Origin: an uncultured Candidatus Saccharibacteria bacterium
Lineage (GTDB): Bacteria > Patescibacteriota > Andersenbacteria > UBA10190
Direction: 5' to 3'
DNA length: 64,000 bases
Assembly: GCA_964610055.1 (NCBI GenBank)
Contig: CAZSUC010000001.1
Coordinates: 216,867-280,866 of the forward strand
The notes under the pieces were generated by a model. It was not told where the DNA came from and ran no database searches. It saw only the letters and a list, made by a program, of their open reading frames with translations. This document shows positions 5,611-54,630 of the stretch, piece after piece; position 1 is the stretch's first letter; each line of letters begins with the position of its first letter. Both the position numbers and the translations under genes were made by a program.

Positions 5611-5698
5611 TTGACATTAAAGCCATTTAATTTCACTATCTTCTTAACTTGTCTCTTTCGATAAGTCGTTCTCTTTCACATTCACAAAGGGTTATACC

Positions 5699-6193
5699 AT
5701 GTCCAAGCGCACTGAATTGGTTATCGCGATTTATCTCGCCTGTTTCTTGCTCGTGCTGAACTGGATCGGTTTATTCAATCTTATTGGCCAGCGTCTTATG
5801 CAGACCTATGGCCAACAATCCCCGCCTATTCCAGCAAAGGAGTGCCAGTCGACGCCTCCAGCTCATCACGTCGTCGATTCGTACGTTCAGCCCGCTTTGT
5901 TCACGGAACCTGTCAAAACCACTAGATTGATCACCTCGCGCAGTGATGACATTCTTATTTCCAAGGCCTGGCAGAAATTTCTTGAAAATCATATGAGCTT
6001 CATTGTGAGCTGTACTTCTCAGTACCAACCTTTGCGGGCAGGGGAGAAGCTAGTGGTTTTCCCTGTCTCCGGGTTGCCTCATGTCAGTATCGAAGCGCAT
6101 ATTGATTTCGAAAAAGGCGAAATCTGGGCCTGCATTAACGGCGGAGTCCTTCCTGATGACTGGGCTGACCTTGCTGACGGGCCTGACCCATGA
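5699..6193 (+). CDS. hypothetical membrane-anchored protein
   Basis: 164 aa ORF with an N-terminal TM helix, bracketed by the two repeated terminators. Confidence 0.45.
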   Translation: MSKRTELVIAIYLACFLLVLNWIGLFNLIGQRLMQTYGQQSPPIPAKECQSTPPAHHVVDSYVQPALFTEPVKTTRLITSRSDDILISKAWQKFLENHMSFIVSCTSQYQPLRAGEKLVVFPVSGLPHVSIEAHIDFEKGEIWACINGGVLPDDWADLADGPDP

Positions 6194-6205
6194 AAGACCT
6201 CATCC

Positions 6206-6245
6206 TTTTCGCGCCCGACGCTTTGCGTCCGGGCGCTCTTTTTAT
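6206..6245 (+). terminator. rho-independent terminator (copy 2 of repeated element)
   Basis: CGCGCCCGACGCTTTGCGTCCGGGCGC + TCTTTTTATTT. Differs from copy 1 by one base in the stem/loop. Confidence 0.6.
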
Positions 6246-6299
6246 TTCATTTCTCTGCGTTATTATTAAACATATTCCTTATTCTTAATTTTCTTTTCT

Positions 6300-8975
6300 A
6301 TGTTGTGTGAACGTTGCTCTTCTCGCCCCGCTGCCTTGCAAGTAACTCGCACAGTCAACGGGCGGACCGAACATCATAATCTATGTCACGCTTGCGCAGA
6401 AGAATTGGGGCTTACTACCCCGCAAGCATCATCTCAAAATTCGCCTTTTGGCCTTTTCCCTGGGTTTGGCGGCTTTTTAGACGAGCCATTTTTTGGTCTT
6501 GGCCAACACTCGCATACTGGCATTCCTAATACTCGTCCTCAGGCTGAGCAAATTAATATCCTGGATTCATTTTCTGACCGAGCTAAAGCTGTTATTCAGT
6601 TCGGAGCCAAAGCCGCCGTTCAAGCCAAAGCACCTTTTTTAGATACTGAACATCTTTTAATTGGCGTGGCTCAAGAGCCGGAAGTTGGACAAGTCGTTTT
6701 AAAAAATCTTGATATCAATCCCGATGAGTTGGTGGGATATTTGTCCGAAAACATGCTTAAAAATCAAAAGAATTACAGTGAAGGAGTTGCCCCCGATCTT
6801 TCTCCGCGCGCCAAAAAAGCCCTTGAGCTAGCTTGGCATACCGCTCGCAATCTTGAACATGGCTATGTTGGGAGTGAACACATTTTGTTAGGACTATTAG
6901 CTGAAGGAGAAGGATTAGCTGCTCAGACTTTACAAAAATACGGCATTTCCGAAACCAAATTACGCCAAGCCGTTTTATCGGCTGTCGGTGAAAAAGGCAA
7001 AAAGACTGGCACAGCAGCTGCTAAAAGTAAAACGCCAACTCTTGATCAATATAGTCGCGATTTATCTCAATTAGCTCAAGAAAATAAATTAGATCCAGTA
7101 ATTGGTCGGGCTGATGAGGTTCAAAGAATTGTTCAAATTCTCTCACGACGAACAAAAAATAATCCTGTCTTAATTGGAGAGCCGGGGACAGGTAAAACTG
7201 CTATTGCTGAAGGTTTAGCAATCCGCATTCTTTCCGGGCAAGTCCCGGAAACATTAAAGGATAAGCGTATTGTTGCCCTTGATATTGCTGGTATGGTTGC
7301 CGGTACTAAATTTCGCGGCGAATTTGAAGAGCGTCTTACTAAAGTCATTCAGGAACTGCAGGCCACTAAAGGAACAATAATTTTGTTCATTGATGAATTA
7401 CATACAGTGATGGGTGCTGGCAACTCCGGCGAAGGCGGTACGTTAGACGCGGCTAATATTTTAAAGCCCGCTCTCGCTCGCGGTGATCTTCAAGCCATTG
7501 GCGCCACCACTTTAAATGAATATCGCAAGCATATTGAAAAAGATCCGGCCTTAGAGCGTCGTTTTCAACCCGTTATGGTCGATGAACCTTCCGTTTCTGA
7601 CGCCATTGAAATTTTGCGTGGGCTTAAAGATCGTTACGAAACTCATCACAAAGTCACTATTAACGACGATGCTATCGTAGCCGCTGTTACTTTATCTGAT
7701 AAGTATATTCGCGATCGCTTTTTGCCTGACAAAGCCATTGACTTAATGGATGAAGCCGCTGCCAAAGTGCGTCTTAGCTCTTTGGAACCACCTTCTTCTC
7801 TTGTGCGCCTTCAGGACCAACTTAAGGCCTTGCAACGTGATTTAGCTGCGGCTCAACGAGCCAAACAGTCAGAAAAAATCACTCCATTAAAAGATCAAAT
7901 TTCAACTACTGAAAAAGATATTGCTGAGCAACAATCAGTCTGGAAAAAGCAATCAGGCACCACTCAGGCTGAAGTTCGTTCTCAGGATATCGAGTCTATT
8001 ATTGCTGCTTGGACCGGTATTCCTGTTGAAAAATTAACTGAAGCTGAATTAGATCGGCTCCTTCATTTAGAAGATGAGTTGCATAAGCGGGTTATCGCCC
8101 AAGAAGAGGCCGTTAAATCAGTTAGTGAAGCCATTCGTCGTAATCGAGCCGGATTAAAAGACCCGAATCGGCCTCAAGGATCATTTCTTTTTCTGGGTCC
8201 GACTGGAGTTGGCAAAACAGAGCTAACCAAAGCTTTAGCCAATGTTCTTTTCGGCACCGATGACGCTCTAATTCGTTTAGATATGTCTGAATACATGGAA
8301 AAACACTCAGTCTCTCGCATGGTTGGTGCGCCTCCGGGTTATGTTGGCTACGATGAAGGCGGACAGCTCACTGAAGCTGTGCGTCGTAAGCCATATGCCG
8401 TTATTTTGTTGGATGAAATTGAAAAAGCCCATCCTGATGTATTCAATATTCTACTACAAGTCCTCGAAGATGGTCGTTTAACCGATAGTAAGGGGAGAGT
8501 CATCGATTTTAAAAACACCCTGATTATTATGACTAGTAATGTCGGCAGTGCCATGATTCAGGAAGCGGCTAAACGAGCTAACAAATCTGACTGGGACAAT
8601 CTCAAACGTCTTTTAAACGATCAGCTCAAAACCACTTTTCGCCCTGAATTTCTGAATAGAATCGACGATATCATTGTTTTTCACGCTTTAACTAAGGAGC
8701 ATGTCCAAAAAATTACCGATTTATTATTAGCTGATGTTAAACGGCTTGTTCGTGCTCAAGGGCTTAACCTGGAAATCAATGAAGAAGTACGTAATCGTCT
8801 TGCTCAAGATGGGTTTGATCCTGAATTTGGCGCTCGTCCGCTTAGACGCGAAATCAGACAGCGTTTAGAAAATAAACTTTCCACTGTTCTGCTCACCGGA
8901 CAATTCCCTCAAGGATCAACTATCGAAGCTTCTCTGAAGCAAGATGACATTATTTTCACTGCTAAGAAAGCCTAA
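6300..8975 (+). CDS. clpC: ATP-dependent Clp protease ATP-binding subunit (ClpC-type double AAA+ chaperone) with N-terminal Cys4 zinc-ribbon extension
   Basis: Two Clp_N repeats. Walker A GEPGTGKT in D1 and GPTGVGKT in D2. A short ~80 aa middle domain (ClpC-like rather than the long ClpB coiled coil). Sensor motifs. The N-terminal CxxC...CxxC (MLCERCSS...CHAC) ~80 aa extension is unusual. Confidence 0.9.
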
Positions 8976-25547: not shown

Positions 25548-26141
25548 ATGAAGATATCCCATTACTCCTTCGCTATCGTTATGTTTAATGTATCGTTATT
25601 TGTTTTGGAAGTCCTTTGGTTTTTTCTGCCGGCTTTTGCTGGTAACATTGCCCCTGTCTTAGCCGCACATTATCATTGGTTGCCTCGTTTAAATTTGCCA
25701 TTGGATGGGGGAGCATATCTCGGTTCTAATCGCTTATTGGGGCAAAATAAAACTATTCGCGGTGTCGTTGTCGGTCTTTTAGCCGGTGCCTTAGTGGGCG
25801 GTTTTCAATTTATAATCGTTGCGCTCATTCCTGCCGAAGTTGTTGTAATTAATGCCTATCATAATTTAATTGGCGCTGTTAGCCTTGGTATGTTAATTAG
25901 TTGCGGTGCTTTACTTGGTGACGCTATCAAAAGTTTTTACAAACGACGCTTGCATATTCCCGCTGGTATTTCATGGAAGCCATGGGATCAAATTGATATT
26001 GTCATCGGTGTGCTGTTAGTAACCTTCCCTTTCTTTCCATTTTCATTATCACAATTTTTTCTCAGTTTAATTGTGATCGGTCTTGGCATGTTTATTATTA
26101 GTTACTTTGGTTTTCGTCTTGGCATCAAAGAGTCAATCTAA
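25548..26141 (+). CDS. CDP-archaeol synthase-like (CarS/DUF46 family) integral membrane protein
   Basis: 5-6 TM helices with PLDGG...GSNRLLGQNKTIRG, resembling the CarS cytoplasmic-loop motif. Assignment is from memory of family motifs. Confidence 0.4.
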   Translation: MKISHYSFAIVMFNVSLFVLEVLWFFLPAFAGNIAPVLAAHYHWLPRLNLPLDGGAYLGSNRLLGQNKTIRGVVVGLLAGALVGGFQFIIVALIPAEVVVINAYHNLIGAVSLGMLISCGALLGDAIKSFYKRRLHIPAGISWKPWDQIDIVIGVLLVTFPFFPFSLSQFFLSLIVIGLGMFIISYFGFRLGIKESI

Positions 26142-30340: not shown

Positions 30341-30865
30341 ATGACCACAATTCTTGAAAATAAACATATAAAAATCACTCAAGAAGAAGTATCTTTCCCT
30401 AATGGAGATCAAATCAATGACTATTATTTAGTAGAAAAAAGAGATTATGTAGCCATTGTTCCTTTGATTAATGATATCGAAAAAAGTTCAAATATTATAT
30501 TAGTTGAACAATACCGTCCTGCTTTAAAACAAAGTATATGGAATATTCCTATGGGATTTATTGATAATGGAGAAACTCCTAAAGAGTCTGCTAAACGTGA
30601 ATTAGCCGAAGAAACCGGATATGAAGGAAAATTAAAGTTATTAGATATATTAGCACCCGCGCCTGGGTTTTATAAATCAATATGTTATTTATACGTGGCT
30701 TATAATTGCCAACAAATTAATACTAACAAAAAACTTGATACAGAAATTCAAAATGTAAAAATCTTAGAATGGTACTGTGCTTTCAATCGTCTTAAAAATA
30801 GCAAAGGCGCAGATATGACATCAGTAGCGGGATTATTACTAATAAAAGAAAAACACGCTTGGTAA
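30341..30865 (+). CDS. NUDIX hydrolase
   Basis: Nudix box GFIDNGETPKESAKRELAEETGY. Confidence 0.8.
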   Translation: MTTILENKHIKITQEEVSFPNGDQINDYYLVEKRDYVAIVPLINDIEKSSNIILVEQYRPALKQSIWNIPMGFIDNGETPKESAKRELAEETGYEGKLKLLDILAPAPGFYKSICYLYVAYNCQQINTNKKLDTEIQNVKILEWYCAFNRLKNSKGADMTSVAGLLLIKEKHAW

Positions 30866-39221: not shown

Positions 39222-39668
39222 ATGGACAATACCACTTCCGAGCATAAAAGTAGCAACAAAGTTCTTTCCGCGGTTCATGCGTTTATTCAGTACAACAATA
39301 AATTTCTCGTTATTAAGCAGGTTGTTACTGAGACTCACGTTTTTTGGGATTTACCCGGTGGCAAAATTATGCATTTAGAAACGCCATATGAAGCACTGCG
39401 TCGTGAAGTTAAGGAGGAAGTTGGCTTAGGCGTAGAAGTGTTTGAGCCTTTAGGAATGTGGTGGTTTTTCCGCGTTAAAGACGGTGACCAGATTGTCTCC
39501 ACGGTTTTCCGCTGCACGACTAATAGTTTTGACGTTAATATTCATAACAATCCTAGTACTGAAGCCATTCAAGATTATCGTTGGATTACACCAGCCGAAT
39601 ACGCTACTGATGAATATCAGGCCTCAGACCCGAGTCTCAAACAACTAATTGGCTCTCTCAAGCTTTAA
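39222..39668 (+). CDS. NUDIX hydrolase
   Basis: Nudix box LPGGKIMHLETPYEALRREVKEEVGL. Confidence 0.8.
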   Translation: MDNTTSEHKSSNKVLSAVHAFIQYNNKFLVIKQVVTETHVFWDLPGGKIMHLETPYEALRREVKEEVGLGVEVFEPLGMWWFFRVKDGDQIVSTVFRCTTNSFDVNIHNNPSTEAIQDYRWITPAEYATDEYQASDPSLKQLIGSLKL

Positions 39669-42206: not shown

Positions 42207-42762
42207 TGGTCGTCTCCTAACAAGGTGACAAAGAACAACCCAGCTCGTCCTTCTAAAGATCCATATCTTTAGGCGCTGGTGAGAAAAACTTTTCTCTCAT
42301 CATCCGCCCAAAACTAAAATCTCCTGGGATGAGCCAGGAGATGTGTAATCTAGTTAATATCTTTAAATATTCTTACAAACTTCCTGGCTGAATGCAGATG
42401 AGCGGACATGCAATAGGGTAATAAACCAAGCTGCCATTGCCGCACGGTTATACAAACGCTTAGTTGTGCTATTACCTAACATAAATTCATCATAATGTTT
42501 TTAACATTAGTGTCAAATTAAATTTGACTTAAACGCAATAAATATGTTAAACAATAATCACATGCAATTATTTAGTTACCAAAATAATCAGAAAGTTTCT
42601 ATGCACTTTCGTGCCGGACGTCTTTTGTTTGCCCAAGGTAGCTTAAATAGCCCAATACTCAGATAAATTATTTTTTCTCTAATTAACTACCTTGGCCAAA
42701 CAAAGCCAAGGTAGTTTTGTTTTCGGCCTTATGTACCTTTAACTCAAAAAGGAGCCCACTAA

Positions 42763-43949
42763 TGATCCACGTGAACTACAACATTCCTAAATTGTACTTG
42801 CTGTACGCTTTCCAAAGCATGTCTTTTTGCTCTGGCTTGATCATTCCTTTTGTCATTGCTAACCACGTCACTCTCGATGAATTCTTTTTGCTTCAGTCTC
42901 TTTATTCTTTAGCTGTATTTATCTTAGAAGTGCCATCCGGATACGCGTCAGACATTTGGGGTCGCAAACCAACCATCATGATCTCTGGTCTTGCTGGGAC
43001 AGCTGGCAGTTTTTTGTATGCCTTAGGCACCAATTTTTGGCACTTTCTTGTCGCCGAATTGCTTTTAGCTATTCTTTGGAGTTTCCAATCTGGTACTCTT
43101 GACGCTTTGACTTACGAAACGCATCAAGAACTTAAGCTGAGCAATAGTCATTACGACTATGTTACTCATCGGCAAAAGTTTTTGAACTTTCTGTTTCAAG
43201 CCATTGGATCATTCATGGGAGGAATTGTCGCTTACTTTTTTGGCTTGCGCGTGGCGCTGTTATGTACGGCAGTGAGTTACAGTTTTGTTCCTCTGATCAC
43301 TTGGTCTCTTGTTGAGCCAGCTCGTCATACCCAAAAAGAAGCACAAGCCATCAAGGATATCTGGCGGGTTTGTTACCAAACGTTTCGGTTCAACGTTCCG
43401 CTGCGCAGCATTATCATGCTTTCTAGCGCCCTCGGAACCATGACTATGGGATTGGTTTGGTTGGGACAGGCTTACCAAGACGAGATTCACTTGCCTGTGC
43501 ATTGGTATGGATTCAGCAATACTGCAATCTTAAGCGCTACCGCTTTTGCTGTTTGGTGTTTGCCTAAACTCAAGCAACGTTTAGATGATCGTAAGTTGCT
43601 CATGGGCATTTCCGCAGTGATCCTTTTGAGCTACTTTGCCATCGGTCAAACGCTCTCAGTTTTTGGATTACTGTTCTTCTTGTTAGGTCGAGCTATGTGG
43701 GGCGCTCTGAGTGCTTTAAAAGTTACCATGATGCAACCTCTCATTCCATCGCATCGACGCGCTACAGTACTCTCCTTTGAAAGCTTACTTGGTCGCCTTA
43801 TATTTGCTGCTGCATCTCTGTTTATGGGTGCCTTAGCACAATCGGGCGGAGTGAGTATTACAGCTACTGTCATTGCTACCATTGGTACGATTATTGTAGT
43901 CAGCATCTTTCTCGCCATGCGGCCGATCTGGCGCCAGCTGCCCTCCTAA
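42763..43949 (+). CDS. MFS transporter
   Basis: About 12 predicted TM helices with a G..G.SD.WGRKP-like loop (GYASDIWGRKP) after TM2. The start was moved from the track's 42717 to ATG 42763, which has AAAGGAG 7 nt upstream. Confidence 0.7.
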
Positions 43950-44005
43950 CGAGTTTTGCCTCGGATATTCCTTATCCGAGGCTTTTCTTATGGTAATCTA
44001 AACAT

Positions 44006-44767
44006 ATGGAAACTATTGCGTTTAAACCCGTTCCTCGTCAGCTAGAGGTCGAAATGTTTTATCGTTTCCTCGTCTTAAATAACTGGGGTTGGGATAAAAT
44101 GATTACTAAACAACATCCTGCTTTAAAAGTTGTTAAAACACTTAAAACAAAAACTGATCGTCTAAATTTCATCACTCAATATCTCAATCAATACACTGCT
44201 CAACATCAAAATATTATTCAAACACGATCTGAGCAACACGAAAAAAGTTGGCGTCAAATAGAGGAGAAAATTTTCATTTTATTATCACAAGTTATGGAAA
44301 TCGATTGGCCTCAAAAGCATCCTCCTATCCAAGCCTTCTTTTCTACGCTTCCTATCTGCCCGCGTTTTTTACGCAATTGGTGCTTCTTTATTAACTGGAA
44401 CGTACCAATTAAACGCAGTCGTACAATTATCGCTCATGAAATTACTCATTTTTTGTATTTCACTCAATGGAAAAAAGTTTTTCCCGATTCGCGTAGCCGC
44501 ACCTTTGATTCTCCATACCTAGAATGGCATTTAAGCGAACTTTTAGCCCCGGTTATTCTTAATGATCCTCGCCTTCAAAAAATTCTAAAAAGACCGCAAG
44601 AGACGTATCAAGAATACGATTCCATTAAAATAGGTAAGCGCACAGTTTTTCAGCATTTAACCTCTTCATATAATTCCCATCTCAAACACCAAACATCTTT
44701 TGCTGCTTTCCTGCAAGCAGCCTATGAAGATACCAAACCTCTCAAAAAACAATTAGAAAACATCTAA
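44006..44767 (+). CDS. putative zinc metallopeptidase (HExxH motif)
   Basis: IIAHEITHFLYF contains HEITH, with a downstream E (EWHLSEL) at a position compatible with a gluzincin third ligand. Confidence 0.4.
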   Translation: METIAFKPVPRQLEVEMFYRFLVLNNWGWDKMITKQHPALKVVKTLKTKTDRLNFITQYLNQYTAQHQNIIQTRSEQHEKSWRQIEEKIFILLSQVMEIDWPQKHPPIQAFFSTLPICPRFLRNWCFFINWNVPIKRSRTIIAHEITHFLYFTQWKKVFPDSRSRTFDSPYLEWHLSELLAPVILNDPRLQKILKRPQETYQEYDSIKIGKRTVFQHLTSSYNSHLKHQTSFAAFLQAAYEDTKPLKKQLENI

Positions 44768-44776
44768 ACAATTTCT

Positions 44777-45175
44777 ATGTTAACTAATGTTTCCGCTTTT
44801 ATTTTCAAAGACAATCAAGTCTTAATCGCTCAAAGAGCTGATAATGAAGACTTGCTATTAGGCTATTGGGAATTAGTTGGCGGAGGTGTCGAAACAAATG
44901 AAACTCCAAAGCAAGCGTGCCTTAGAGAGACAAAAGAAGAAGCAGGTATAGATATTGCAATTGGTCGACAATATGGTAATTTCCCTTTTACTCATCCAGA
45001 ACTTGGTCAAATTGATAGCCTTGCTTTTGTTTGTGTTCCCAAATCAAATTCCGCAATCACATTGAGTTTCGAACATCAAAACTATCGTTGGATTACAGCC
45101 GCAGAACTAGGGGATATTAACCCAATGACTGATCGCATGCGTTCTATGATTCTTCAGGGTTTTAATGAAGTTTAG
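44777..45175 (+). CDS. NUDIX hydrolase
   Basis: Nudix box GGGVETNETPKQACLRETKEEAGI. Confidence 0.8.
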   Translation: MLTNVSAFIFKDNQVLIAQRADNEDLLLGYWELVGGGVETNETPKQACLRETKEEAGIDIAIGRQYGNFPFTHPELGQIDSLAFVCVPKSNSAITLSFEHQNYRWITAAELGDINPMTDRMRSMILQGFNEV

Positions 45176-45473
45176 CTTGTAAAACTTCCACATTCCGAAT
45201 AAACTCTTTTTCTAAATCAATTCCATACTCATCTGCTAGCACTAACACGCTCCATAAACAATCTGCTAATTCATGTGCTAAAGCCTCATCCACATTATCA
45301 ATTTTCCTAATACCTTGCTTAGCCAGTATTAATTTCATTAAATCACCTACATCTCCTACGAATCCTTCGGCAATATTTTCCCTAGTCCAATTTTTATTGT
45401 ATGTAATTTTCTCATACTTTCTATATATCTCTCTTAGTTCCAACGCTTTTTCCTTTAATTCGTTAAATTGCAT
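45162..45473 (-). CDS. MazG-like nucleotide pyrophosphohydrolase
   Basis: EEVGDLMKL-like and ELADCLWSVLVLADEYGIDL blocks of the all-alpha MazG/NTP-PPase fold. Confidence 0.7.
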   Translation of the reverse strand: MQFNELKEKALELREIYRKYEKITYNKNWTRENIAEGFVGDVGDLMKLILAKQGIRKIDNVDEALAHELADCLWSVLVLADEYGIDLEKEFIRNVEVLQAKLH

Positions 45474-45504
45474 TATTTTATCTTAAGTAGAGTAAAGTAA
45501 TATT

Positions 45505-46008
45505 ATGCTTAACGTTAAACCTTTCCAGGAGACTTTGCACGGTGGCTATTGTGGTCCAGCAAGCCTAAAAATGGTCTTAAACTATTACGGCCGAGATAAA
45601 AGCGAAGAAGAGATAGCTGTGCAATGCAAACGCGACCCCGATCTTGGCACTACCGATATTGCTCTTAAACAAGTCGCCGAAAACTATGGATTTGAAGTAA
45701 TTATCCAAGATAAAGCCTCGTTTGATGACCTAAAGCACTGGTTAGACCGAAAAGTACCTGTAATCGTTAATTGGTTTACTCGCGGTCGTTCGAACTATTC
45801 AGACTCTGAAGTTCCTGACGGTCATTATTCTGTCGTCATCGGTTTAGACGCTAACAACATCTATCTCCAAGACCCGGAAATAGGGAATATACGCACTATC
45901 AGCCGGGATAATTTCCTAAAAGTATGGTTTGATTTCAAATCCAGCCACATCCAATCATGGGAAGATTTAATCCTCCGGCAAATCATCGCCATTTATCCTA
46001 AAGAGTAA
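45505..46008 (+). CDS. stand-alone peptidase C39-like domain protein
   Basis: HGGYCGPASLKMVLNYYG (catalytic Cys context) plus downstream His (DGHYSVVIG) and Asp (QDPE), typical of the C39/C39-like papain fold. Confidence 0.6.
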   Translation: MLNVKPFQETLHGGYCGPASLKMVLNYYGRDKSEEEIAVQCKRDPDLGTTDIALKQVAENYGFEVIIQDKASFDDLKHWLDRKVPVIVNWFTRGRSNYSDSEVPDGHYSVVIGLDANNIYLQDPEIGNIRTISRDNFLKVWFDFKSSHIQSWEDLILRQIIAIYPKE

Positions 46009-46024
46009 TAAAATTGTTCATCAT

Positions 46025-46420
46025 ATGAAAAAAGAAAGCGTTGGTATTCTGATTACAAATAAAGCCGGAGAATACCTTTTACAAATGCGAGATGGAACCC
46101 CTGGTATTTGCAACCCTTTACGCTGGAACTTTTTTGGCGGTCGACGCAATAATCTCGAAGAAATTATTTCCGGAGCTATGCGTGAGTTATCTGAAGAATT
46201 AGATATTATTGCGAATTCAGAAGAATTCAAAATTCTTGGGGACATTATTTTTCCTGACGGTGAGTTTTACACTCTTACTCAATATTTGAAACCAATAACT
46301 TGGCGCGATTTCAGTGTTAATGAAGGCGCTGGAGCAGCTTTTTTTACGAAGCAAGAGCTAGAACAAATTAACATTACCGAAAAAACCAAACTACTAATCC
46401 ATAAATTTATTATTGGATAA
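46025..46420 (+). CDS. NUDIX hydrolase
   Basis: Nudix box FGGRRNNLEEIISGAMRELSEELDI. Confidence 0.7.
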   Translation: MKKESVGILITNKAGEYLLQMRDGTPGICNPLRWNFFGGRRNNLEEIISGAMRELSEELDIIANSEEFKILGDIIFPDGEFYTLTQYLKPITWRDFSVNEGAGAAFFTKQELEQINITEKTKLLIHKFIIG

Positions 46421-46423
46421 ATA

Positions 46424-46876
46424 ATGTTAACATGCGTTTTTGAAAACGGAGACGAAGCATCACTGCGACATGCAGTCGTGCAAGGAATTGTGCTAAATCA
46501 GGATAACCAACTCATGCTTATTAAGCGGGCAGTCAACTTGATTGAAGGAAGTAAATGGGCCTTACCGGGTGGTTATGTTGAGCGCGATGAAACGCTTCCC
46601 GAAGCTCTTACACGGGAAGTTAAAGAAGAAACTGGTTGGGAAATTAAAAATATAAAACTCATTAGTATTTACGATAATCCTAATCGCCCTCGTGAAGATC
46701 GACAAAACATCGCCTTTAACTACATCTGTCTGGCTACTAAGCAAACCGGTCAACATGACCATGAAGTTACCGCAACGCACTGGTTTTCTTTAACGGATCC
46801 AGTCGTTAAGAACCTCGCTTTTGATCATTCTAATGCAGTCAATGATTTTATTAGCCAAAAAAATATTCGTGACTAA
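46424..46876 (+). CDS. NUDIX hydrolase
   Basis: Nudix box LPGGYVERDETLPEALTREVKEETGW. Confidence 0.8.
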   Translation: MLTCVFENGDEASLRHAVVQGIVLNQDNQLMLIKRAVNLIEGSKWALPGGYVERDETLPEALTREVKEETGWEIKNIKLISIYDNPNRPREDRQNIAFNYICLATKQTGQHDHEVTATHWFSLTDPVVKNLAFDHSNAVNDFISQKNIRD

Positions 46877-46981
46877 AATATGGCAATTGCACCGTTTGGC
46901 CTAATTCAGCAAGCATACCAATTAAAATTTTTAATAAGCACTCCAATAACATTGATCATTTAGTAAACGATATTATTAACT

Positions 46982-47563
46982 ATGCCAAAATCTAAAGAAA
47001 TCAAACCTTGGAAACTAATTAACTCCGAAATGGTTTTAGATGAAAAATGGTACCGTGTTCGTAAAGATACTGTCGAAGTCCGCCCAGATCGAATTATTGA
47101 CGATTACTACATCGGTCTTTTCAATGACATTGTTTTAATCCTTGCTCTTACTCCGGACAATAACGTTCCTCTGGTGCGTCAATATAAACATAGAGCCGGG
47201 GAAATCCTCTTAGAACTCCCGGCTGGTTACATGGATCCAGGCGAAGAACCGCTGCATGCCGCTCAAAGAGAATTGCAAGAAGAAACTGGGTTTACTGCTA
47301 AAGATTGGCAATATTTTGGTTGTTTCATCTCAAACTCCGCTAAATCAAAAGGGAATAATGTTCATATTTTTCTTGCGCGCAACGCTGTTCAAACTCACTC
47401 GCAAAACCTAGATCCTAACGAAGACATCGAAATTGTTACTATTCCTTTTCAAGATGCCATTAAAAAAGCTCTTAATCATGAAATCAAAGGCAGTGATAGT
47501 GTTTTGGCTCTCCTTCTAACTGAAAAACAGAAAAAATCAATTTACCGCCACGCGCAAAAATGA
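46982..47563 (+). CDS. NUDIX hydrolase (ADP-ribose pyrophosphatase-like)
   Basis: Nudix box LPAGYMDPGEEPLHAAQRELQEETGF with an N-terminal NudF-like extension. Confidence 0.8.
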   Translation: MPKSKEIKPWKLINSEMVLDEKWYRVRKDTVEVRPDRIIDDYYIGLFNDIVLILALTPDNNVPLVRQYKHRAGEILLELPAGYMDPGEEPLHAAQRELQEETGFTAKDWQYFGCFISNSAKSKGNNVHIFLARNAVQTHSQNLDPNEDIEIVTIPFQDAIKKALNHEIKGSDSVLALLLTEKQKKSIYRHAQK

Positions 47564-47907
47564 AAGGCGACACCAAGCAATTATAGACTCAGCCAGGTGT
47601 CACAACTCAAATAGACTTCTTTTTCTTCGCGCAAAACACCAAGATTAATCCAGGGACTTCCAACAAATTACAACACTATGAAGGTATCACAGAAGCGCGC
47701 TTTTTCTCAAAAGACAAGATATTTACCGTGATTCGCCAAGGAGATATCACTCATGGTCAAACGTTAACAGGTATCTTTTTAGCGCATTTAAAAGGCAAGA
47801 TTTAAAAACGGATATAATCTAATCATTATTTACTTGCCCAATACAAACGCTTCATTCCCAGCTTTCTTAATTGGCGCAAGCTATCCAATTAATGTTATTT
47901 TAATCTT

Positions 47908-49149
47908 ATGAACGACAATTTATCACAAAAATTAACTGCAACCTCAAACAAGACCGGCGAGCCAAAACCGGTTTTTTTTGACCTCAGTTCTAATGCAGAC
48001 CAATCCAAACTCGAGGATCTGTTAGAAAAAAATCCTCATACAAAAATTGTTGATACGTATGATACGCAGTTGCTCGAATCTTTTGTTCTAGATCATCCAG
48101 CTTTACACATTAATCATCCTGAACGTGATCGTCAGTTTAAAGATTACCGCGATCAGCATTATGGTACCCAAGAAGCTTGGCAAGCCGGTAAATGGGTTTA
48201 TCTTCCTTGGAGACACATCTTGCTCCATATTCTAGACGATGCTTCGTATCAAAAAGTTCGCACCGGGCGTAACCGTAACCTTATTACTGCAGCTGAACAG
48301 GACAAGTTTTATAACAGTACTATCGGTATCGGTGGTCTGTCGGTTGGTAACAGTATCGTACTGGCTATTGTTTTAAGCGGTGGGGGAAAGCATATGAAAT
48401 TGGCTGATCCAGATACTTTGGAACTAACAAATCTTAATCGCATTCGCGGTAGCATATCCGAACTCACTGAGCCAAAAGTATATATGACTGCTCGACAAAT
48501 TTACGAGCTTGATCCTTATGCGGATCTGACTCTCTACACCGACGGGATTACTGAAGACAATATTACTGATTTCTTTACCGGTTTAGATTTGGTTATTGAT
48601 GAAATAGATAATCTAGGAATCAAAATTCGTATCCGTCAGCATGCTCAAAAAAATCGTATCCCAGTAGTGATGGCAGCTGACAATGGAGAAGGAGGCATTT
48701 TAGACGTTGAACGACATGACAAAGAAGACAATATCCCATATTTTCATGGTCGAGCTGGCCAAGACATTGAAGATCGCGTTTTAAATCAACATTTACCTCT
48801 ACCTTTAATTGGTAAGGTAATTTGTGAAGAACTTATTGGCTACGATATGACCGATGAACGAATGCAACAGTCTGTCTTGCAGATTGGCCAAGAAATTCCT
48901 ACTTGGCCTCAATTAGGAGCCGCCGCTCTCTTAAATGGAGTTGCTGTTGCTGGTACCGTTAGGCGTATTTTAAATAATCAGCCCGCCGTTAATGATAGAG
49001 CTGATTTGCGTATGAGTGCTTGGCTTGATCCTTATTACAATGATCCTGAGCAAGCCGAACAACGCCGCCGCAATACCGAAAAATTCGGTAAGGCTTACGA
49101 TCAGAATATCGAACAGTTTCTAAAAATGATGCAAAAGAAACTTAACTAG
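47908..49149 (+). CDS. ThiF/MoeB/E1-like adenylyltransferase family protein with long N-terminal extension
   Basis: Rossmann GxGxxG (IGIGGLSVGNSIVLAI), followed by a DPD...L.NLNR arginine-finger region and a DxxD-like block (LVIDEIDN). Confidence 0.6.
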   Translation: MNDNLSQKLTATSNKTGEPKPVFFDLSSNADQSKLEDLLEKNPHTKIVDTYDTQLLESFVLDHPALHINHPERDRQFKDYRDQHYGTQEAWQAGKWVYLPWRHILLHILDDASYQKVRTGRNRNLITAAEQDKFYNSTIGIGGLSVGNSIVLAIVLSGGGKHMKLADPDTLELTNLNRIRGSISELTEPKVYMTARQIYELDPYADLTLYTDGITEDNITDFFTGLDLVIDEIDNLGIKIRIRQHAQKNRIPVVMAADNGEGGILDVERHDKEDNIPYFHGRAGQDIEDRVLNQHLPLPLIGKVICEELIGYDMTDERMQQSVLQIGQEIPTWPQLGAAALLNGVAVAGTVRRILNNQPAVNDRADLRMSAWLDPYYNDPEQAEQRRRNTEKFGKAYDQNIEQFLKMMQKKLN

Positions 49150-50299
49150 CACCTAAAATTACCTCAACTTTCTCTACATCATCCGGACTTAACGCAAAAT
49201 GAGCTCGTAAATAACCCGTATCAGCACTCCCAGGCCTAAAGAAAGGAATACCAGGCGCCACCGCGATGCCTTTATCTAATAGCTCCTGCATCGCTGCCAT
49301 ATCACTGGCGCGATTATGTTTTACCATCATGTAATAAGCCCCCTGCGGCGACACTGGTTCCATGCCATATTTCTCAAAAGCAGCCATAATTCTTATTCGA
49401 TTATTTCGATATTGTCCCACTAAATCTGACACAAACCGATCTAATTGGTTGCTTTCTGTTTGCCATAAGTCTGCTAAAATCAATTGCGCTGGCGCTGGTG
49501 CACCTACGTATAAAGCCTCATGAATATGCGTCATATTAGCCCGTCGTTCAGGAGCAGTTATCGCATATCCTGTTCTCCAGCCAGCTAAGGCTAAATTCTT
49601 GGAAAAACTCCTACAGATTACTAAGTGGTTTAAATCGGAAGCTAAACTTAAAAGGGAAGTATAATCATTTTCCCAAATAAAATCTTGATAAACCTCATCC
49701 ATTACTAGCAGCACATTATTACGAACACATAAATTGTACAATTTTTCTAAATCATCCTTATCAATCACTGTGCCTGTCGGATTAGCTGGATTTCCAATTA
49801 ATAATGCCTTGAGCCCCGGGATTTTTTGGCCAATAGTTTCCCAGTTCAATTTAAATTCAGTATTGTAGGGAATGTATTCCGTAACCGCTTGAATAGCTTG
49901 AATGGCCCAATTATGAGCTGGATAAAAAGGCTCCAACAAGCCTACTTTATCGCCGGGAGCGCATACTGTTCTTAAAGCAGAAACTACTCCACCTGTTACT
50001 CCATTAGTTGCCATTACTTCCTCTAAAGTTAAGTCAGCTCTTTCTCTTTGCAAGCGATTTAATAGTGCTGCTCTATATTCCTTATATCCTGCTGGAGAAG
50101 CATAAGTATGCATTCGGCGCTCTTTAAACCTCTCATTTAATTTATCCAAGAAAATCTTAGGTGGGGCAGTATGAACTACTCCTTGCGCCATATCAATTGC
50201 TCCAGCTTCAACTGCCATGTCGGCCATTTCTCGGCCTGTTGGTAAATGCGTCCCGTTATTTTTAATCATCAAAACCTTGGCATCGATAACATTTTTCAT
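49142..50299 (-). CDS. PLP-dependent aminotransferase (class I/II, AAT fold)
   Basis: SFSKNLALAGWRTGY (PLP-lysine block), NPANPTG, and a C-terminal R for substrate carboxylate. Confidence 0.85.
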   Translation of the reverse strand: MKNVIDAKVLMIKNNGTHLPTGREMADMAVEAGAIDMAQGVVHTAPPKIFLDKLNERFKERRMHTYASPAGYKEYRAALLNRLQRERADLTLEEVMATNGVTGGVVSALRTVCAPGDKVGLLEPFYPAHNWAIQAIQAVTEYIPYNTEFKLNWETIGQKIPGLKALLIGNPANPTGTVIDKDDLEKLYNLCVRNNVLLVMDEVYQDFIWENDYTSLLSLASDLNHLVICRSFSKNLALAGWRTGYAITAPERRANMTHIHEALYVGAPAPAQLILADLWQTESNQLDRFVSDLVGQYRNNRIRIMAAFEKYGMEPVSPQGAYYMMVKHNRASDMAAMQELLDKGIAVAPGIPFFRPGSADTGYLRAHFALSPDDVEKVEVILGAS

Positions 50300-50322
50300 A
50301 AGCTAAGGATAGCTCCATTTTC

Positions 50323-50356
50323 GCCCAATAAAAAGCGGCAGGTGATACCCGCCGCA
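50323..50356 (-). terminator. rho-independent terminator closing the RiPP operon
   Basis: Minus-strand GCGGCGGGTATCACCTGCCGC hairpin followed by TTTTTATTGGG. Lies between the small membrane-protein gene and the aminotransferase start. Confidence 0.5.
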
Positions 50357-50381
50357 TAAACCACCTGGATTTCATGCTGCT

Positions 50382-50657
50382 TTAGCCGAAAAGCCAGGGG
50401 ACCAGAGACCAGAAAGCCCAATGTGCCATGTAACCGATGCCACACATCAGCAGGGTTACAACCGTGACGATCATCCAAAGAGGAGTCTGGAATGGCGCTG
50501 CAAAATCAACGGATTCACTGGGCGCACTTGTCTCTAAGTTCGCATGCGGCAACAGGCCATCCCGAGCGCGGGACTCCCACGCAATCTTGCTAGGAGTCTC
50601 ACTGTCATTCCTGTGATTTTGATCCGCACCAACATCGTAAGAACTCCCGTGCATCAC
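50382..50657 (-). CDS. small membrane protein (2 C-terminal TM helices); candidate immunity/export accessory
   Basis: 91 aa with a hydrophilic N-terminus and a C-terminal WMIVTVVTLLMCGIGYMAHWAFWSLVPWLF. It is the last gene of the operon and has higher GC than the host background. Confidence 0.4.
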   Translation of the reverse strand: MMHGSSYDVGADQNHRNDSETPSKIAWESRARDGLLPHANLETSAPSESVDFAAPFQTPLWMIVTVVTLLMCGIGYMAHWAFWSLVPWLFG

Positions 50658-50796
50658 ATAACCCTCCTAAAAAGGACAAAATCACACAACCTACTACTAA
50701 TCAAAAATTACAGTCAATAACACAAAATTACAACCATGCCGTGTCAATTGTTCTTAACACGCAGATTCAAACTTAATTAACAATAGGTTGGTAATT

Positions 50797-51471
50797 CTAA
50801 AAAATTTCCTCTGCTTTGACCTCCACAATTGCCGCCGGATTCTTAATATTCCGTTTCGCCATATACTGCCGCACCATATCATACCCCAGCGAATACCCAG
50901 TCCACTTTTTTATACCGTTCCCCCCGTAAAACCAATCATCGCGGTTAAAATCTTCAGACTTCAAGATCGGTTTTGCTTTTTTCCAAATCAGACTCAACTC
51001 CTGACTATCAAGATTATGAGCATACGGCACATCAATATCAGAATACATAAATTCCTCAAACATTGACGGCAATCCCTCGTCAACTAACGCCTCACCCAAT
51101 GTTTTTGCTACTGGCCAAGTGGCATATCGTCTAGCATGGCACATCTCATGGGCAATTGCTGATGGCATCCATTGTTTTACATTATGAATTATCCCATTTT
51201 TATGTTTTGGGTCTATAAAAATTAGAATTGTATCTGCTTCGCCGCACCGGCCTCCTACACCCTGCTCCGGAATAGTCGCAAATTTATCCGCATAAACCAA
51301 AATATTACACTCCTTAAGATTAAGCCATTTATTACAGTCAGTCACAGCCTCTCGCGCCACTTCTAAAACATTAGCCGCATCTAGCACTTCCGCATCTTGA
51401 TCATGTATCCGGTACATTAAATGGATATAAATTTTACTGCTAGTTATCTTGTATGAGAATTTTGTGAGCAT
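50797..51471 (-). CDS. putative Zn-dependent metallopeptidase (HExxH; DUF2268-like?)
   Basis: SAIAHEMCHARRY contains HEMCH with a downstream Glu (VDEGLPSMFEEF). Immediately downstream of the precursor gene in the same orientation. Confidence 0.5.
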   Translation of the reverse strand: MLTKFSYKITSSKIYIHLMYRIHDQDAEVLDAANVLEVAREAVTDCNKWLNLKECNILVYADKFATIPEQGVGGRCGEADTILIFIDPKHKNGIIHNVKQWMPSAIAHEMCHARRYATWPVAKTLGEALVDEGLPSMFEEFMYSDIDVPYAHNLDSQELSLIWKKAKPILKSEDFNRDDWFYGGNGIKKWTGYSLGYDMVRQYMAKRNIKNPAAIVEVKAEEIF

Positions 51472-51490
51472 ACCACCGTATGATCATAGG

Positions 51491-51526
51491 ATTAATAAAA
51501 GGGCCGACTGTATAGGAGCCGGCCCA
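51491..51526 (-). terminator. intra-operon partial terminator/attenuator immediately after precursor gene
   Basis: Minus-strand GGGCCGGCTCCTATACAGTCGGCCC hairpin followed by TTTTATTAAT. Sits 17 nt after the precursor stop codon. Confidence 0.45.
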
Positions 51527-51542
51527 ACGCGGAGAGGATTGG

Positions 51543-51725
51543 CTAGCGGCTGCACTTACCGCCGCCGTTTGATCCGCCACCGCTGCACTTACCGCCGCCG
51601 TTTGATCCGCCGGCACATCCGTTTCCGCTTGCTTGCATCTCGCGGGTAGAAATACCGCGAGAATAAGCGAGCCGCGTCACCTTCAGTTGAGGAGACGCTT
51701 TTTTCGCAACCGTCTCTGACGGCAC
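51543..51725 (-). CDS. RiPP precursor peptide, microcin B17-like Gly/Ser/Cys/Asn-rich core (LAP/TOMM substrate)
   Basis: 60 aa: MPSETVAKKASPQLKVTRLAYSRGISTREMQAS | GNGCAGGSNGGGKCSGGGSNGGGKCSR. GTG start with AAGGAGGT 5 nt upstream. Lies 15 nt downstream of the YcaO gene. The core has 3 Cys, 4 Ser, 3 Asn and 14 Gly in 27 residues. Confidence 0.7.
   Translation of the reverse strand: MPSETVAKKASPQLKVTRLAYSRGISTREMQASGNGCAGGSNGGGKCSGGGSNGGGKCSR
51549..51611. repeat. perfect 33-nt direct tandem repeat (x2) inside precursor core
   Basis: GCTGCACTTACCGCCGCCGTTTGATCCGCC occurs at 51549 and again at 51582 (period 33). It encodes the duplicated core module GGSNGGGKCS. Confidence 0.85.
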
Positions 51726-51740
51726 AACGAACCTCCTTTC

Positions 51741-53603
51741 CTAATCCAAAGGGTGGACAGAAAATCTTAGAGGCACATCCTTAACTTCAACGACACGAGT
51801 ATGCGGGAGCTGGTTGAACCCAAACGTCAAAGGAACAAACCAGGGACTCAGGAGCCGCACCACCCTCAATCCCTGTACCTCACCATACGCAACCGAGTAC
51901 AGCGCGTCAACACCTAATTGTCGACACACTTTGACAACGTCGGCGCTTTCAACAACCTCTTCGGAAAAGCAAGGCTTCGTTAACTCTGACTCTGAAAAAG
52001 TTGTTGAAGACCACAAAAAAGAAGCTGAAACCAAGTTTTCAGGATTGTTAAACCAGCACGCATGGTCATCTGGCGTCCTAACGTCCTGTAAGGCAATTCG
52101 CGGCTTTTCTTCCATGTGCATTGCCGGATCCAGTAACCGGCAAAACAATCCTACCTCAGCTTCTTTCCAAGCACTCAGCAGTGCTTCTTGGACAGTGTTG
52201 CGCGCAGCTGCGCCGCAAATCATCGCCGGCCAATTGTTTCTCCGCAAGACTACTAGCATCGTGGGTACGATAGTCTTGGATATATCAAGGAAATCCACCT
52301 GATATCCAAGTGACCGCACCTTATCGCATTCCGCGACGAGGTCTCGGGGAATCATGCACTCAGACAATCGTGACGGAGGCTGGCGAAAAATCCAGGTTTT
52401 CATGAACGCATCGCGTTCAATGAGCTCTAATAGCGCCGAAAACTGCGCTTTCGCAACAGACATTCCAGCAGCCATACCAGAAGAGTTCGCCCAACGGCAT
52501 CTTTGCTTGTAAGAATGCGGTTGGAAAGGGTAGTAACACAAATCAGCAAGAATCCGCACTTCCTGACCAGTTATAACACTAATGGCATTGCGCCAATAGT
52601 ATTTGCAATCTGGTTTAAAAGGGCGCAGCTCCGCATCCTCGCATTGGCTACCAGTCAAGTGATACAGGGAATCGGGGTCAATCCGATTTTTGCTTCCATG
52701 CAATGACCCATATTCAAGTCCATGAGTATTGTATTTTCCAGCCGCATGCCTCTCCAAAGCTTCTGCGGACGAAACCAAATGCGCTGTGAGCCTATCCCTG
52801 TGCGCGCCACTTGCGACTGGATTACGTCTCCCGTCCCATTGTCCTTTTTGGCGATAGCGAGACATAACTATCGCCACAGACGGAGAAAATCCCGTGGACA
52901 AATCTGTGATTACAGATTGCTGAACCACAGAGCCAAATGGACCACAATAATGCCAATTCCCAACATCAATCCAATTAACTGTGCGCTCGCGGACACTAAT
53001 CTCGCATAGGCATTCATCCTCCGCTAACAAAGAGACAATCGTACTAGCAAGCCACTTACACGTGTCATGCTCAATAAAATTTTCTCCAGGAATAACTACC
53101 TCGCCCGTGTTCCAGAAAAGAGGGCGTGCCCTATCTAGCCAAACGCCAGCAAACGCCCACTCAATCAGCCGCTTAGCCAGAAGCTTTTGCTGTCGTGGTT
53201 TAGATAGCTTGGCCAACAGGTAAAGAGGGCCAAACCGGAAGCCTAAACCATAGCATTTCCCAGTTTTATTAAAAACTGGGAAATGCTGAAAAATTGGCAA
53301 ACCCGAGCAATTCTCTGCGATGTGCCAGTCAAGTCGATCAGGAGGTTGGGTATCCAAAACCCAGACTTGCTCTTGAATCAACAATGACCATAGCGACATC
53401 ATTTTTTCTGGGGGAACATTGCTTTGTTCAGCAAAATTCCAGACAATTACTTGATCAAGCAGGCCATTCTTATAACCTGCACACGCACGTAACAAGTGCG
53501 AGACCTGAGCATCAGCAATGGAAACCTCGTTCTGTAGACTTACGAACTCGGCCCGGTCACTCAGAAAAAACAGATCATATGTAGGGTTAAACCTAACAAT
53601 CAT
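51741..53603 (-). CDS. YcaO-domain cyclodehydratase (TOMM SagD/McbD-type) with ~230 aa N-terminal extension
   Basis: YcaO signature RWANSSGMAAGMSVAKAQFSALLELIERDAF (ATP/Mg-binding S...E..ER motif) and downstream conserved blocks. The N-terminal ~230 aa has no Rossmann motif and is a possible leader-binding/E1-like docking domain. Confidence 0.85.
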   Translation of the reverse strand: MIVRFNPTYDLFFLSDRAEFVSLQNEVSIADAQVSHLLRACAGYKNGLLDQVIVWNFAEQSNVPPEKMMSLWSLLIQEQVWVLDTQPPDRLDWHIAENCSGLPIFQHFPVFNKTGKCYGLGFRFGPLYLLAKLSKPRQQKLLAKRLIEWAFAGVWLDRARPLFWNTGEVVIPGENFIEHDTCKWLASTIVSLLAEDECLCEISVRERTVNWIDVGNWHYCGPFGSVVQQSVITDLSTGFSPSVAIVMSRYRQKGQWDGRRNPVASGAHRDRLTAHLVSSAEALERHAAGKYNTHGLEYGSLHGSKNRIDPDSLYHLTGSQCEDAELRPFKPDCKYYWRNAISVITGQEVRILADLCYYPFQPHSYKQRCRWANSSGMAAGMSVAKAQFSALLELIERDAFMKTWIFRQPPSRLSECMIPRDLVAECDKVRSLGYQVDFLDISKTIVPTMLVVLRRNNWPAMICGAAARNTVQEALLSAWKEAEVGLFCRLLDPAMHMEEKPRIALQDVRTPDDHACWFNNPENLVSASFLWSSTTFSESELTKPCFSEEVVESADVVKVCRQLGVDALYSVAYGEVQGLRVVRLLSPWFVPLTFGFNQLPHTRVVEVKDVPLRFSVHPLD

Positions 53604-54630
53604 CCATAGTCTCCTCCAGGCGACCAGCTAAAACGACAGTAAGAGGCACAACGCCATCTAACAGGTTAAGAACAGCGGACAACTCACGATCAAAAAACCC
53701 ACCAACTTCTACACAACCCAAGCCACACTCAGCACAAAAAATTTGCAAATTTTGTGCTGCATGACCGGCTTCAAGAATAGTGTAGCGATAACCGCGATCA
53801 CCATACTTCCTACACACGAATGGCACATCACCACTGATCACAAAACATGCCCCGCAAGTATCTACATAAGTGTCTTTCATAAAGCAACCATGAAAGGCAG
53901 TAGTATCTTGCCATTTAGTCAGCAGATGAATGTCATGGGTGTAAGAATACACTCCGCTGTCAAGTCCAGGCGACGGTGTTGTAACAAGAACATGCAGCAT
54001 AAGCGGATAGAGAGCGCCAGCTGACGGTATCGTACGGCGTAATAAACCGCAAGACTCCCAAGCAAACGATCCTACCACCCCGCATGCAGACCAACACAAA
54101 TCCCTAACCTCCTGGCGCTTGAGAGGCGCCCCAGTAAACTGACGAGACGTGCGTCGACTACATAATAACTTCGCAAAGGGGGTCGTCGGCACCGGCAGAA
54201 AGCCTCCTACAGGCTGCCTTTTCTGCACTTCGTTGTACAAATTGTTCATCTCATCGTCAGACAGCCTCTTAAAAAGAGGCATGGGATTGTTGCCGTATGC
54301 ATGAAATGCACGCCAGCATTCCTGGGCATCTACTAACGCTCCGCTACTTTGTAACAACTCAACCAGTGACAAAATTGACGGAAGTGGGTATGAGCAAGAA
54401 AGAACCTCAATAATCTCATGTAACTCGTAGTAGCCGGAACAATAACGCAACAAATCCCGCTGAAGCTGAACGTCACATTCAACTACTATGACTTCCTCGG
54501 GAAGGTAATACCGCATAGAGGAAATACAGTTATCAACGTAACAAGTAACCCTAGGGCGCCAAGAAAGGCTCATCAGAAGTTTCTCCTTATAATTGTCAAA
54601 GAACTGTCCAAAACGACGACAATCAATCAT
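53593..54630 (-). CDS. SagB-type FMN-dependent dehydrogenase (McbC-like azoline oxidase, nitroreductase fold)
   Basis: N-terminal SagB-specific extension followed by a nitroreductase core (LLCSRRTSRQF; AGALYP; RYTILEAGHAAQNLQIFCAECGLG). Overlaps the YcaO gene by 11 bp. Confidence 0.8.
   Translation of the reverse strand: MIDCRRFGQFFDNYKEKLLMSLSWRPRVTCYVDNCISSMRYYLPEEVIVVECDVQLQRDLLRYCSGYYELHEIIEVLSCSYPLPSILSLVELLQSSGALVDAQECWRAFHAYGNNPMPLFKRLSDDEMNNLYNEVQKRQPVGGFLPVPTTPFAKLLCSRRTSRQFTGAPLKRQEVRDLCWSACGVVGSFAWESCGLLRRTIPSAGALYPLMLHVLVTTPSPGLDSGVYSYTHDIHLLTKWQDTTAFHGCFMKDTYVDTCGACFVISGDVPFVCRKYGDRGYRYTILEAGHAAQNLQIFCAECGLGCVEVGGFFDRELSAVLNLLDGVVPLTVVLAGRLEETMDDC

Follow-up and report, generated by a model that had tools for sequence, protein, structure and literature searches.

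A cluster of genes for predicted nucleotide-hydrolysing enzymes was analysed in a 64-kb stretch of contig CAZSUC010000001.1 (assembly GCA_964610055.1, positions 216,867 to 280,866), referred to below as the window. The cluster spans 3.6 kb (positions 44006-47563 of the window) and comprises four NUDIX genes (N1 to N4), one gene for a small MazG-like nucleoside triphosphate (NTP) pyrophosphatase and two genes of peptidase type, one encoding a C39-like cysteine peptidase and one a 253-amino-acid (aa) protein, here named unk253 (Table 1). NUDIX genes account for four of these seven genes. Two further NUDIX genes, N5 and N6, are dispersed in the window, the latter between a gene for a nucleoside diphosphate (NDP)-sugar 4,6-dehydratase and pyrD. 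All six NUDIX open reading frames (ORFs) scored above the gathering cut-off of 21.1 bits for Pfam PF00293, and a Nudix-box regular expression and a custom hidden Markov model both returned exactly these six. A first-pass annotation had read the dense array, with the six NUDIX genes, the minus-strand MazG gene and the stand-alone C39-like peptidase, from the DNA letters, and each of these was borne out, with all coordinates right. Its heading of an "NTP-pyrophosphatase array" was imprecise because N4 is an enzyme of the ADP-ribose type.

Table 1. Features of the cluster, dispersed NUDIX genes and the adjacent locus (positions in the window).
Feature	Position	Strand	Description
Terminator-like hairpin	43958..43982	+	10-bp stem, 6 GC pairs, T-tail; 3' of upstream MFS gene
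unk253	44006..44767	+	253 aa, HExxH...E motifs, gluzincin-like fold (model); ends 9 bp before N1
N1	44777..45175	+	132 aa, MutT/NudG/NudI-like NUDIX; Pfam 69.6 bits
MazG-like	45162..45473	-	103 aa, single-domain all-alpha NTP pyrophosphatase; Pfam MazG 22.7 bits
C39-like cysteine peptidase	45505..46008	+	167 aa, stand-alone; Pfam C39_2 64.7 bits, C39 55.9 bits
N2	46025..46420	+	131 aa, small MTH1-like NUDIX subfamily; Pfam 34.0 bits
N3	46424..46876	+	150 aa, generic MutT-type NUDIX; Pfam 74.1 bits
N4	46982..47563	+	193 aa, NudF-type ADP-ribose/NDP-sugar pyrophosphatase, N-terminal extension; Pfam 62.5 bits
N5 (dispersed)	30341..30865	+	174 aa, NudE/ADPRase-like NUDIX; Pfam 53.1 bits
N6 (dispersed)	39222..39668	+	148 aa, MutT-like NUDIX; Pfam 62.9 bits
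RiPP-like locus genes	47908-54630		ThiF/E1-like (NCBIfam Rv1355c family, N-terminal half), aminotransferase, DUF2268 Zn-protease-like
Candidate precursor	51543-51725	-	Gly/Cys/Ser-rich 60-aa ORF, C-terminal end GNGCAGGSNGGGKCSGGGSNGGGKCSR
YcaO	51741-53603	-	RiPP-like locus
Nitroreductase/SagB-like	53593-54630	-	RiPP-like locus

The hairpin downstream of the gene for a major facilitator superfamily (MFS) protein likely forms the 5' boundary of the cluster. Behind it the plus-strand genes follow closely upon one another, with gaps of 9 bp between unk253 and N1, 16 bp between the C39-like gene and N2, 3 bp between N2 and N3, and 105 bp between N3 and N4. N1 and the MazG-like gene are convergent and overlap by 14 bp, while the MazG-like and C39-like genes stand head to head with a spacer of 31 bp. 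The GC content of the segment (0.37-0.38) was lower than that of the flanks (0.41-0.45), and the single genes of the cluster ranged from 0.32 to 0.42 against a window mean of 0.42 (standard deviation 0.045). A promoter scan was uninformative because fewer sigma-70-like sites were found than in shuffled controls.

The clustering of the NUDIX genes is real. The background was taken from about 1 Mb of comparable contigs of the type of the Candidate Phyla Radiation (CPR), in regions away from the anchor genes, and contained about 0.1-0.3 NUDIX genes per 10 kb. The Poisson probability of at least four NUDIX genes in 2.8 kb was 4e-8 to 2e-6, and that of at least six in 64 kb was 1e-4 to 1.4e-2. By Pfam, NUDIX genes made up 6 of the about 54 genes of the window, compared with 3 of 116 genes far from the C39 anchor in CPR loci.

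The canonical Nudix box GX5EX7REUXEEXGU was present in N1 (at residue 36), N3, N4, N5 and N6. In N2 the box reads GX5EX7REx2EExD, the last glycine being replaced by aspartate, with the REx2EE core intact and conserved in its family. The best PDB matches of N1 were MutT (3e-13) and CTP pyrophosphohydrolase (NudG, 6.6e-11), together with NudI, and those of N3 were MutT/nudix proteins, an 8-oxo-dGTPase domain, NUDT1 and NUDT18. N2 gave weak matches to CTP pyrophosphohydrolase and MTH1. For this small subfamily, whose family alignment shows the signature LLQMRDGxxGICNPLKWNFFGG, a word-index search recovered three clusters only, and an exhaustive search of 1.84 billion representatives yielded 83 relatives at E<=1e-10. 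Some of these relatives (among them P0201, P0208, P0212, P0220 and P0228) are 260-430 aa long and carry two or three tandem NUDIX domains; from such proteins it would therefore appear that the juxtaposition of NUDIX genes in the N2 subfamily sometimes becomes a gene fusion.

N4 resembled solved ADP-ribose pyrophosphatases over its full length, including the N-terminal domain. It matched NudF (PDB 5c7q) with E = 2.2e-20 over residues 11-168, as well as ADP-ribose pyrophosphatases of several species, and it shares with NudF and related enzymes (5c7q, 1v8i, 1mk1) the N-terminal extension typical of the dimeric forms; N5 is of the same type. N4 remained below the NCBIfam cut-offs for NudE (69.4 versus 169 bits) and YffH/AdpP (TIGR00052, 24.9 versus 79.55 bits), as did N5 (52.7 and 28.5 bits). 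The MutT equivalog models have cut-offs of 97.9 bits (TIGR00586) and 148 bits (NF008044), and the scores obtained with them were 49.1 and 47.6 for N1, which stayed below every NCBIfam equivalog cut-off, 40.8 and 47.0 for N3, and 34.5 and 44.4 for N6; N2 reached 19.7 with TIGR00586. N1, N2, N3 and N6 are accordingly described here as MutT-like on their sequences and are not filed as MutT orthologues. N5 was also the strongest compositional outlier among the 54 genes, with a GC content of 0.30 and a third-position GC content of 0.19 against window means of 0.42 and 0.355, which suggests a recent horizontal acquisition.

Pairwise BLAST comparisons among the six proteins gave at best 34% identity over nearly the full length, for N1 and N6 (119 aa) and for N4 and N5 (94 aa). 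The best pair within the array, N1 and N3, was 47% identical over just 51 residues, and most other pairs aligned in the Nudix box only. The paralogs are thus ancient and divergent and belong to separate subfamilies. That the array arose when a single NUDIX gene was recently duplicated in tandem, an idea for which nothing but the adjacency of the genes speaks, is refuted by this divergence, and the array genes also differ in length, in their N-terminal domains and in their PDB relatives. The first-pass annotation had named well-separated subfamilies present at syntenic positions in all relatives as the finding that would speak against its view of an unusual array; the subfamilies are indeed well separated, but conservation in the relatives is partial and not syntenic (see below).

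The MazG-like protein scored just above the Pfam cut-off of 22 bits, and its orthologue in the closest genome representative, L003, just below it (21.7 bits). A profile built from 60 sequences of the family matched RS21-C6/DCTPP1 with 2.5e-6, and YpjD and the chains 2q73 and 2q5z as well, with the acidic motifs aligned. Residues D41, E68 and D71 were invariant among the 60 homologues and D44 nearly so, in keeping with the acidic metal-binding motifs of MazG-type enzymes (ExxE/D ... ExxD), and the protein can be described as a small MazG-like NTP pyrophosphatase of the DCTPP1/YpjD type. More than 373 relatives were found in metagenomes and none among the viral sequences of IMG/VR.

In the C39-like protein the catalytic triad is intact, Cys16, His107 and Asp123 being invariant in all 31 homologues. 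The best PDB matches were the endoisopeptidase PeiR (3.5e-5) and the peptidase domain of ComA (4.7e-5), with which the protein shares a papain-like Cys/His/Asp triad and the Pfam families C39 and C39_2. Unlike the C39 domains of peptidase-containing ABC transporters (PCATs), it stands alone, lacks a transporter domain and an obvious signal peptide, and is highly conserved in CPR lineages. NCBIfam PCAT models gave 27-33 bits with cut-offs above 500, and no ABC transporter was fused to the protein or encoded in the cluster. Homologues in many CPR lineages were 55-70% identical, those in two metagenome-assembled genomes (MAGs) labelled as archaeon/DPANN 42-43%, and no viral relatives were present in IMG/VR.

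In unk253 an invariant HExxH motif is followed by a downstream glutamate, and a confident structural model superposed on the catalytic domains of gluzincins (M1 aminopeptidase/LTA4H, thermolysin). On the strength of this model, unk253 may be regarded as a candidate gluzincin-like metallopeptidase. A kinship with the DUF2268 protein of the window was rejected, since the HExxH turn alone aligned and the probability was 18%, and a 253-aa ORF of the locus L015 proved to be unrelated. Pairs of NUDIX genes lay near unk253 homologues in two of five further contexts (L118 and L120; none in L121, L123 and L125), where they belonged to other subfamilies and were not orthologues of N2, which gives the idea of a general unk253-NUDIX module partial support only. 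A radical-SAM gene stands immediately upstream of members of the unk253 family (P0006-P0041) in two unrelated contigs (L120 and L125), and one member, P0022, carries a fused GNAT acetyltransferase domain. In L035, L118 and L019, GNAT genes are neighbours of NUDIX pairs as well.

The window has a chromosomal gene content, including ClpB, PNPase, RecG, two class I aminoacyl-tRNA synthetases, TsaD and five tRNAs. The best named relatives of its PNPase were 65-68% identical and came almost all from Ca. Andersenbacteria, which places the host in the Parcubacteria group of the Patescibacteria (CPR), phylum Ca. Anderseniibacteriota. NCBI lists the window proteins on a contig of 698,565 bp, and the sequencing runs SRR8925805 and SRR8925775 contain the same contig. 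The small genome that had been assumed for the organism beforehand is now plausible for a CPR host. Many ORFs of the window had no Pfam match, and an Rfam scan of the window detected tRNAs only. The ORF at 25548-26141 matched the CarS-like (CDP-archaeol synthase) family with 90 bits in this bacterial genome.

The closest genome representative, L003, is moderately distant. Its proteins were identical to those of the window to 70% (C39), 60% (MazG), 46% (N2), 32% (N4), 24% (unk253) and 68% (ThiF-like protein). The MazG-like and C39-like genes of L003 are again head to head, with a 36-bp spacer, and N2, N4 and unk253 are kept in a different order, while N1 and N3 are absent; a ThiF-like gene lies within 10 kb. 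The MazG/C39 spacers of the window (45474-45504) and of L003 (9941-9976) are both AT-rich and have TCTTAAGT in common. This stretch, with the palindrome CTTAAG inside it, might be an operator or promoter element common to both, or a chance similarity. Beside the L003 cluster are an AbiEii/AbiEi type IV toxin-antitoxin pair (5757-7047) and a C-type-lectin protein bearing a PEP-CTERM sorting signal (3774-5654), the latter unexpected for a CPR-like genome. In L035 a GNAT gene is followed by an N2 gene (64% identical) and then by a different NUDIX gene of 160 aa.

The most telling comparison was provided by L015 (Ca. Staskawiczbacteria), which contains an independent co-directional array: kinase-like gene, S9 hydrolase, ORF, Ham1, C39, NUDIX, Maf, MazG, GrpB, NUDIX and C39. 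A passage of PMC10014863, citing Galperin et al. (2006), distinguishes four structural superfamilies of house-cleaning NTP pyrophosphatases, namely Nudix, ITPase (Maf/HAM1), all-alpha and trimeric dUTPase, and three of these four are present in L015, the trimeric dUTPase alone missing. Ham1 and NUDIX genes also occur near C39 in L018 and L030. What the window shows is one case of a tendency that recurs but is loose, and not a fixed module.

NUDIX and a Ddl-like ATP-grasp ligase shared first place among the families found within two genes of C39, with 7 of 111 genes each. The density of NUDIX genes within 500 bp of C39 was 2.06 per 10 kb (6 in 29 kb), compared with 0.14-0.43 further out, and this bin of immediate adjacency alone stood out, as 11 NUDIX genes were counted in the remaining 391 kb. 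CPR C39-like genes have NUDIX, Ddl-like ATP-grasp, S66 carboxypeptidase and Ham1 genes as their neighbours rather than genes for bacteriocins. In seven CPR loci (L004, L008, L009, L010, L011, L022 and L032) the Ddl-like ATP-grasp gene is directly upstream of C39, in five of them together with a conserved ORF of about 450 aa without a Pfam match, and S66 LD-carboxypeptidase genes occur in three to four other C39 loci. These neighbours, together with PeiR as the best PDB match, hint at a role of the C39-like family in peptidoglycan peptides.

The cluster is best explained as a lineage-variable collection of independently acting house-cleaning and metabolite pyrophosphatases, an explanation in which we place somewhat better than even confidence. 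N1, N2, N3 and the MazG-like protein would each act on its own range of non-canonical or surplus (d)NTPs and release (d)NMP and pyrophosphate, and N4 would convert ADP-ribose or NDP-sugars to NMP and sugar phosphate. Ancient paralogs of separate subfamilies would have been brought together and exchanged over time, accreting around the conserved head-to-head MazG/C39 pair and the gluzincin-like protein unk253, and their co-location probably allows co-expression; the tight same-strand spacing behind the hairpin, the part of the cluster kept in L003, the N2-NUDIX pair of L035 and the arrays of L015, L018 and L030 are counted in favour of this explanation. The folds and motifs are those of the house-cleaning enzymes treated in the same passage of PMC10014863 (the NUDIX enzymes MutT, NudG and MTH1, and DCTPP1 and YpjD of the MazG type), with REx2EE in N1 to N3 and acidic MazG motifs that align to RS21-C6/DCTPP1, and the proteins are likewise small, soluble and single-domain. 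Unlike the dispersed house-cleaning genes of model bacteria, four NUDIX genes and a MazG gene are contiguous here and interleaved with two peptidase genes. Of the roles proposed in the first-pass annotation, nucleotide-pool sanitation and nucleotide-sugar/ADP-ribose hydrolysis fit the subfamilies, N1 to N3 and MazG being of NTP types and N4 and N5 of NudF/NudE-like ADP-ribose types, with substrates that are predicted from these relationships. Its suggestion of a variable accessory region was supported in part, by the low GC content and by the rearranged subset without N1 and N3 beside the AbiE pair in L003.

Several points weigh against this explanation. The frequency of NUDIX genes within two genes of C39 by Pfam (7/111) did not differ significantly from that in distal positions (3/116; Fisher one-sided p = 0.15). 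A general MazG-C39-NUDIX module was rejected, as 80 MazG-anchored metagenome loci (571 kb) contained no C39 gene and only six NUDIX genes, and the trio is therefore lineage-specific. None of the enzymes reached an NCBIfam equivalog cut-off, so that the substrates are guesses. The comparison included one relative with long flanks, the moderately distant L003, and the presence of two peptidases in a cluster of nucleotide hydrolases is not accounted for. CPR genomes moreover seem to be NUDIX-rich in general, which weakens the surprise at the array.

This last point leads to the view that the array is a neutral pile-up, by chance or drift, in a recombination-prone spot of lower GC content, with no functional coupling or co-regulation. 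We consider this unlikely. In its favour, NUDIX genes are present even far from C39 in CPR loci, the NUDIX partners differ between relatives (N1 and N3 in the window, neither in L003, a different 160-aa NUDIX in L035), the GC content of the cluster is below that of its flanks and that of N5 deviates strongly, an AbiE pair adjoins the L003 cluster, and the Fisher test was not significant. However, four NUDIX genes in 2.8 kb are far beyond the Poisson expectation, the head-to-head MazG/C39 pair, N2 and N4 have survived rearrangement at 46-70% protein identity (N4 32%), and L015 carries its own array of Ham1, Maf, MazG and NUDIX. Much less probable still is an anti-phage or conflict island, in which the NUDIX and MazG enzymes would drain the nucleotide supply or break down nucleotide signals (NAD/ADP-ribose, cyclic nucleotides) and the peptidases would serve as effectors or regulators. 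The four NUDIX proteins of the array matched the PADLOC candidate family PDC-S07 (N1 with 71.6 bits), but this is a generic MutT-like NUDIX family whose scores equal the Pfam NUDIX scores; MazG, C39 and unk253 had no PADLOC match, and PADLOC-DB v2 gave no multi-component match to one defence system, ThiF matching E1-E2 models weakly. The low GC content, the adjacent AbiEii/AbiEi genes in L003 and the high identity of C39 across distant CPR lineages, with relatives in the DPANN-labelled MAGs that suggest horizontal spread, would suit such an island, whereas a sensor, nuclease, TIR, SIR2 or cyclase partner is absent and viral relatives of C39 and MazG were not found in IMG/VR.

The two peptidases were also considered in connection with the genes that follow the array, which resemble a locus for a ribosomally synthesised and post-translationally modified peptide (RiPP) of the thiazole/oxazole-modified microcin (TOMM) type. 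The peptidases, possibly with the whole segment, could belong to this locus, C39 and unk253 acting as leader peptidases and the pyrophosphatases as bystanders or for self-protection. C39 peptidases classically cut off leader peptides, ThiF, YcaO and nitroreductase genes and a candidate precursor are at hand, an MFS_3 "secretion effector" gene lies upstream, and the distance from ThiF to C39 is no more than 10 kb in L003 and no more than 5 kb in L019. Yet no YcaO gene was found in 20 kb of L003, where the 626-aa ORF encodes the lectin/PEP-CTERM protein, ThiF is missing from the surroundings of C39 in 28 of 31 loci, RiPP pathways are not known to require NUDIX or MazG, and the frame of the precursor is putative; we regard this assignment as improbable. 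A similarly small chance is given to a coupling of the CPR C39-like peptidase, here together with unk253, to NUDIX, MazG, Ham1 and Maf for the detoxification or processing of nucleotide-linked peptides or proteins. The peptidase would free a nucleotide-bearing fragment, which the pyrophosphatases would destroy; peptidyl-nucleotide "Trojan-horse" antibiotics and nucleotidylated or ADP-ribosylated substrates are examples. GNAT, S66-peptidase and ThiF/E1 genes recur in C39/NUDIX neighbourhoods, and these families may echo the gene set for microcin-C biosynthesis and immunity.

The TOMM-type RiPP-like locus begins directly after the array, and the MFS gene upstream of the cluster occupies 42717-43949. 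The candidate precursor is encoded in repetitive DNA, in which further frames are open. The spacer between N4 and the ThiF gene contains a stretch of 72 codons (47587-47805) that is uninterrupted by stops and lacks a start codon. It might be a decayed gene; as a remnant of a NUDIX C-terminus it was rejected, as neither Pfam nor a tblastn comparison with the six NUDIX proteins gave a match.

Each enzyme of the cluster can be recognised as belonging to a known superfamily, with its catalytic motifs intact, and none is assignable to a specific characterised orthologue group. The arrangement of these known kinds is new, but it is not surprising mechanistically. A full-text literature search brought up no account of arrays of NUDIX or house-cleaning genes, or of the C39-like family, in CPR bacteria. 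The recurrence of a conserved cytoplasmic C39-like peptidase among pyrophosphatase genes points to a so far unrecognised activity of this family. CPR bacteria have a minimal metabolism, and many of them rely on nucleotides taken up from a host or from their surroundings. A dedicated, evolutionarily fluid nucleotide-sanitising battery, if that is what the cluster represents, would indicate how CPR cells keep imported nucleotide pools safe, and the cluster supplies well-defined families for biochemistry in the N2 NUDIX subfamily, the gluzincin-like unk253 family and the CPR MazG-like family.

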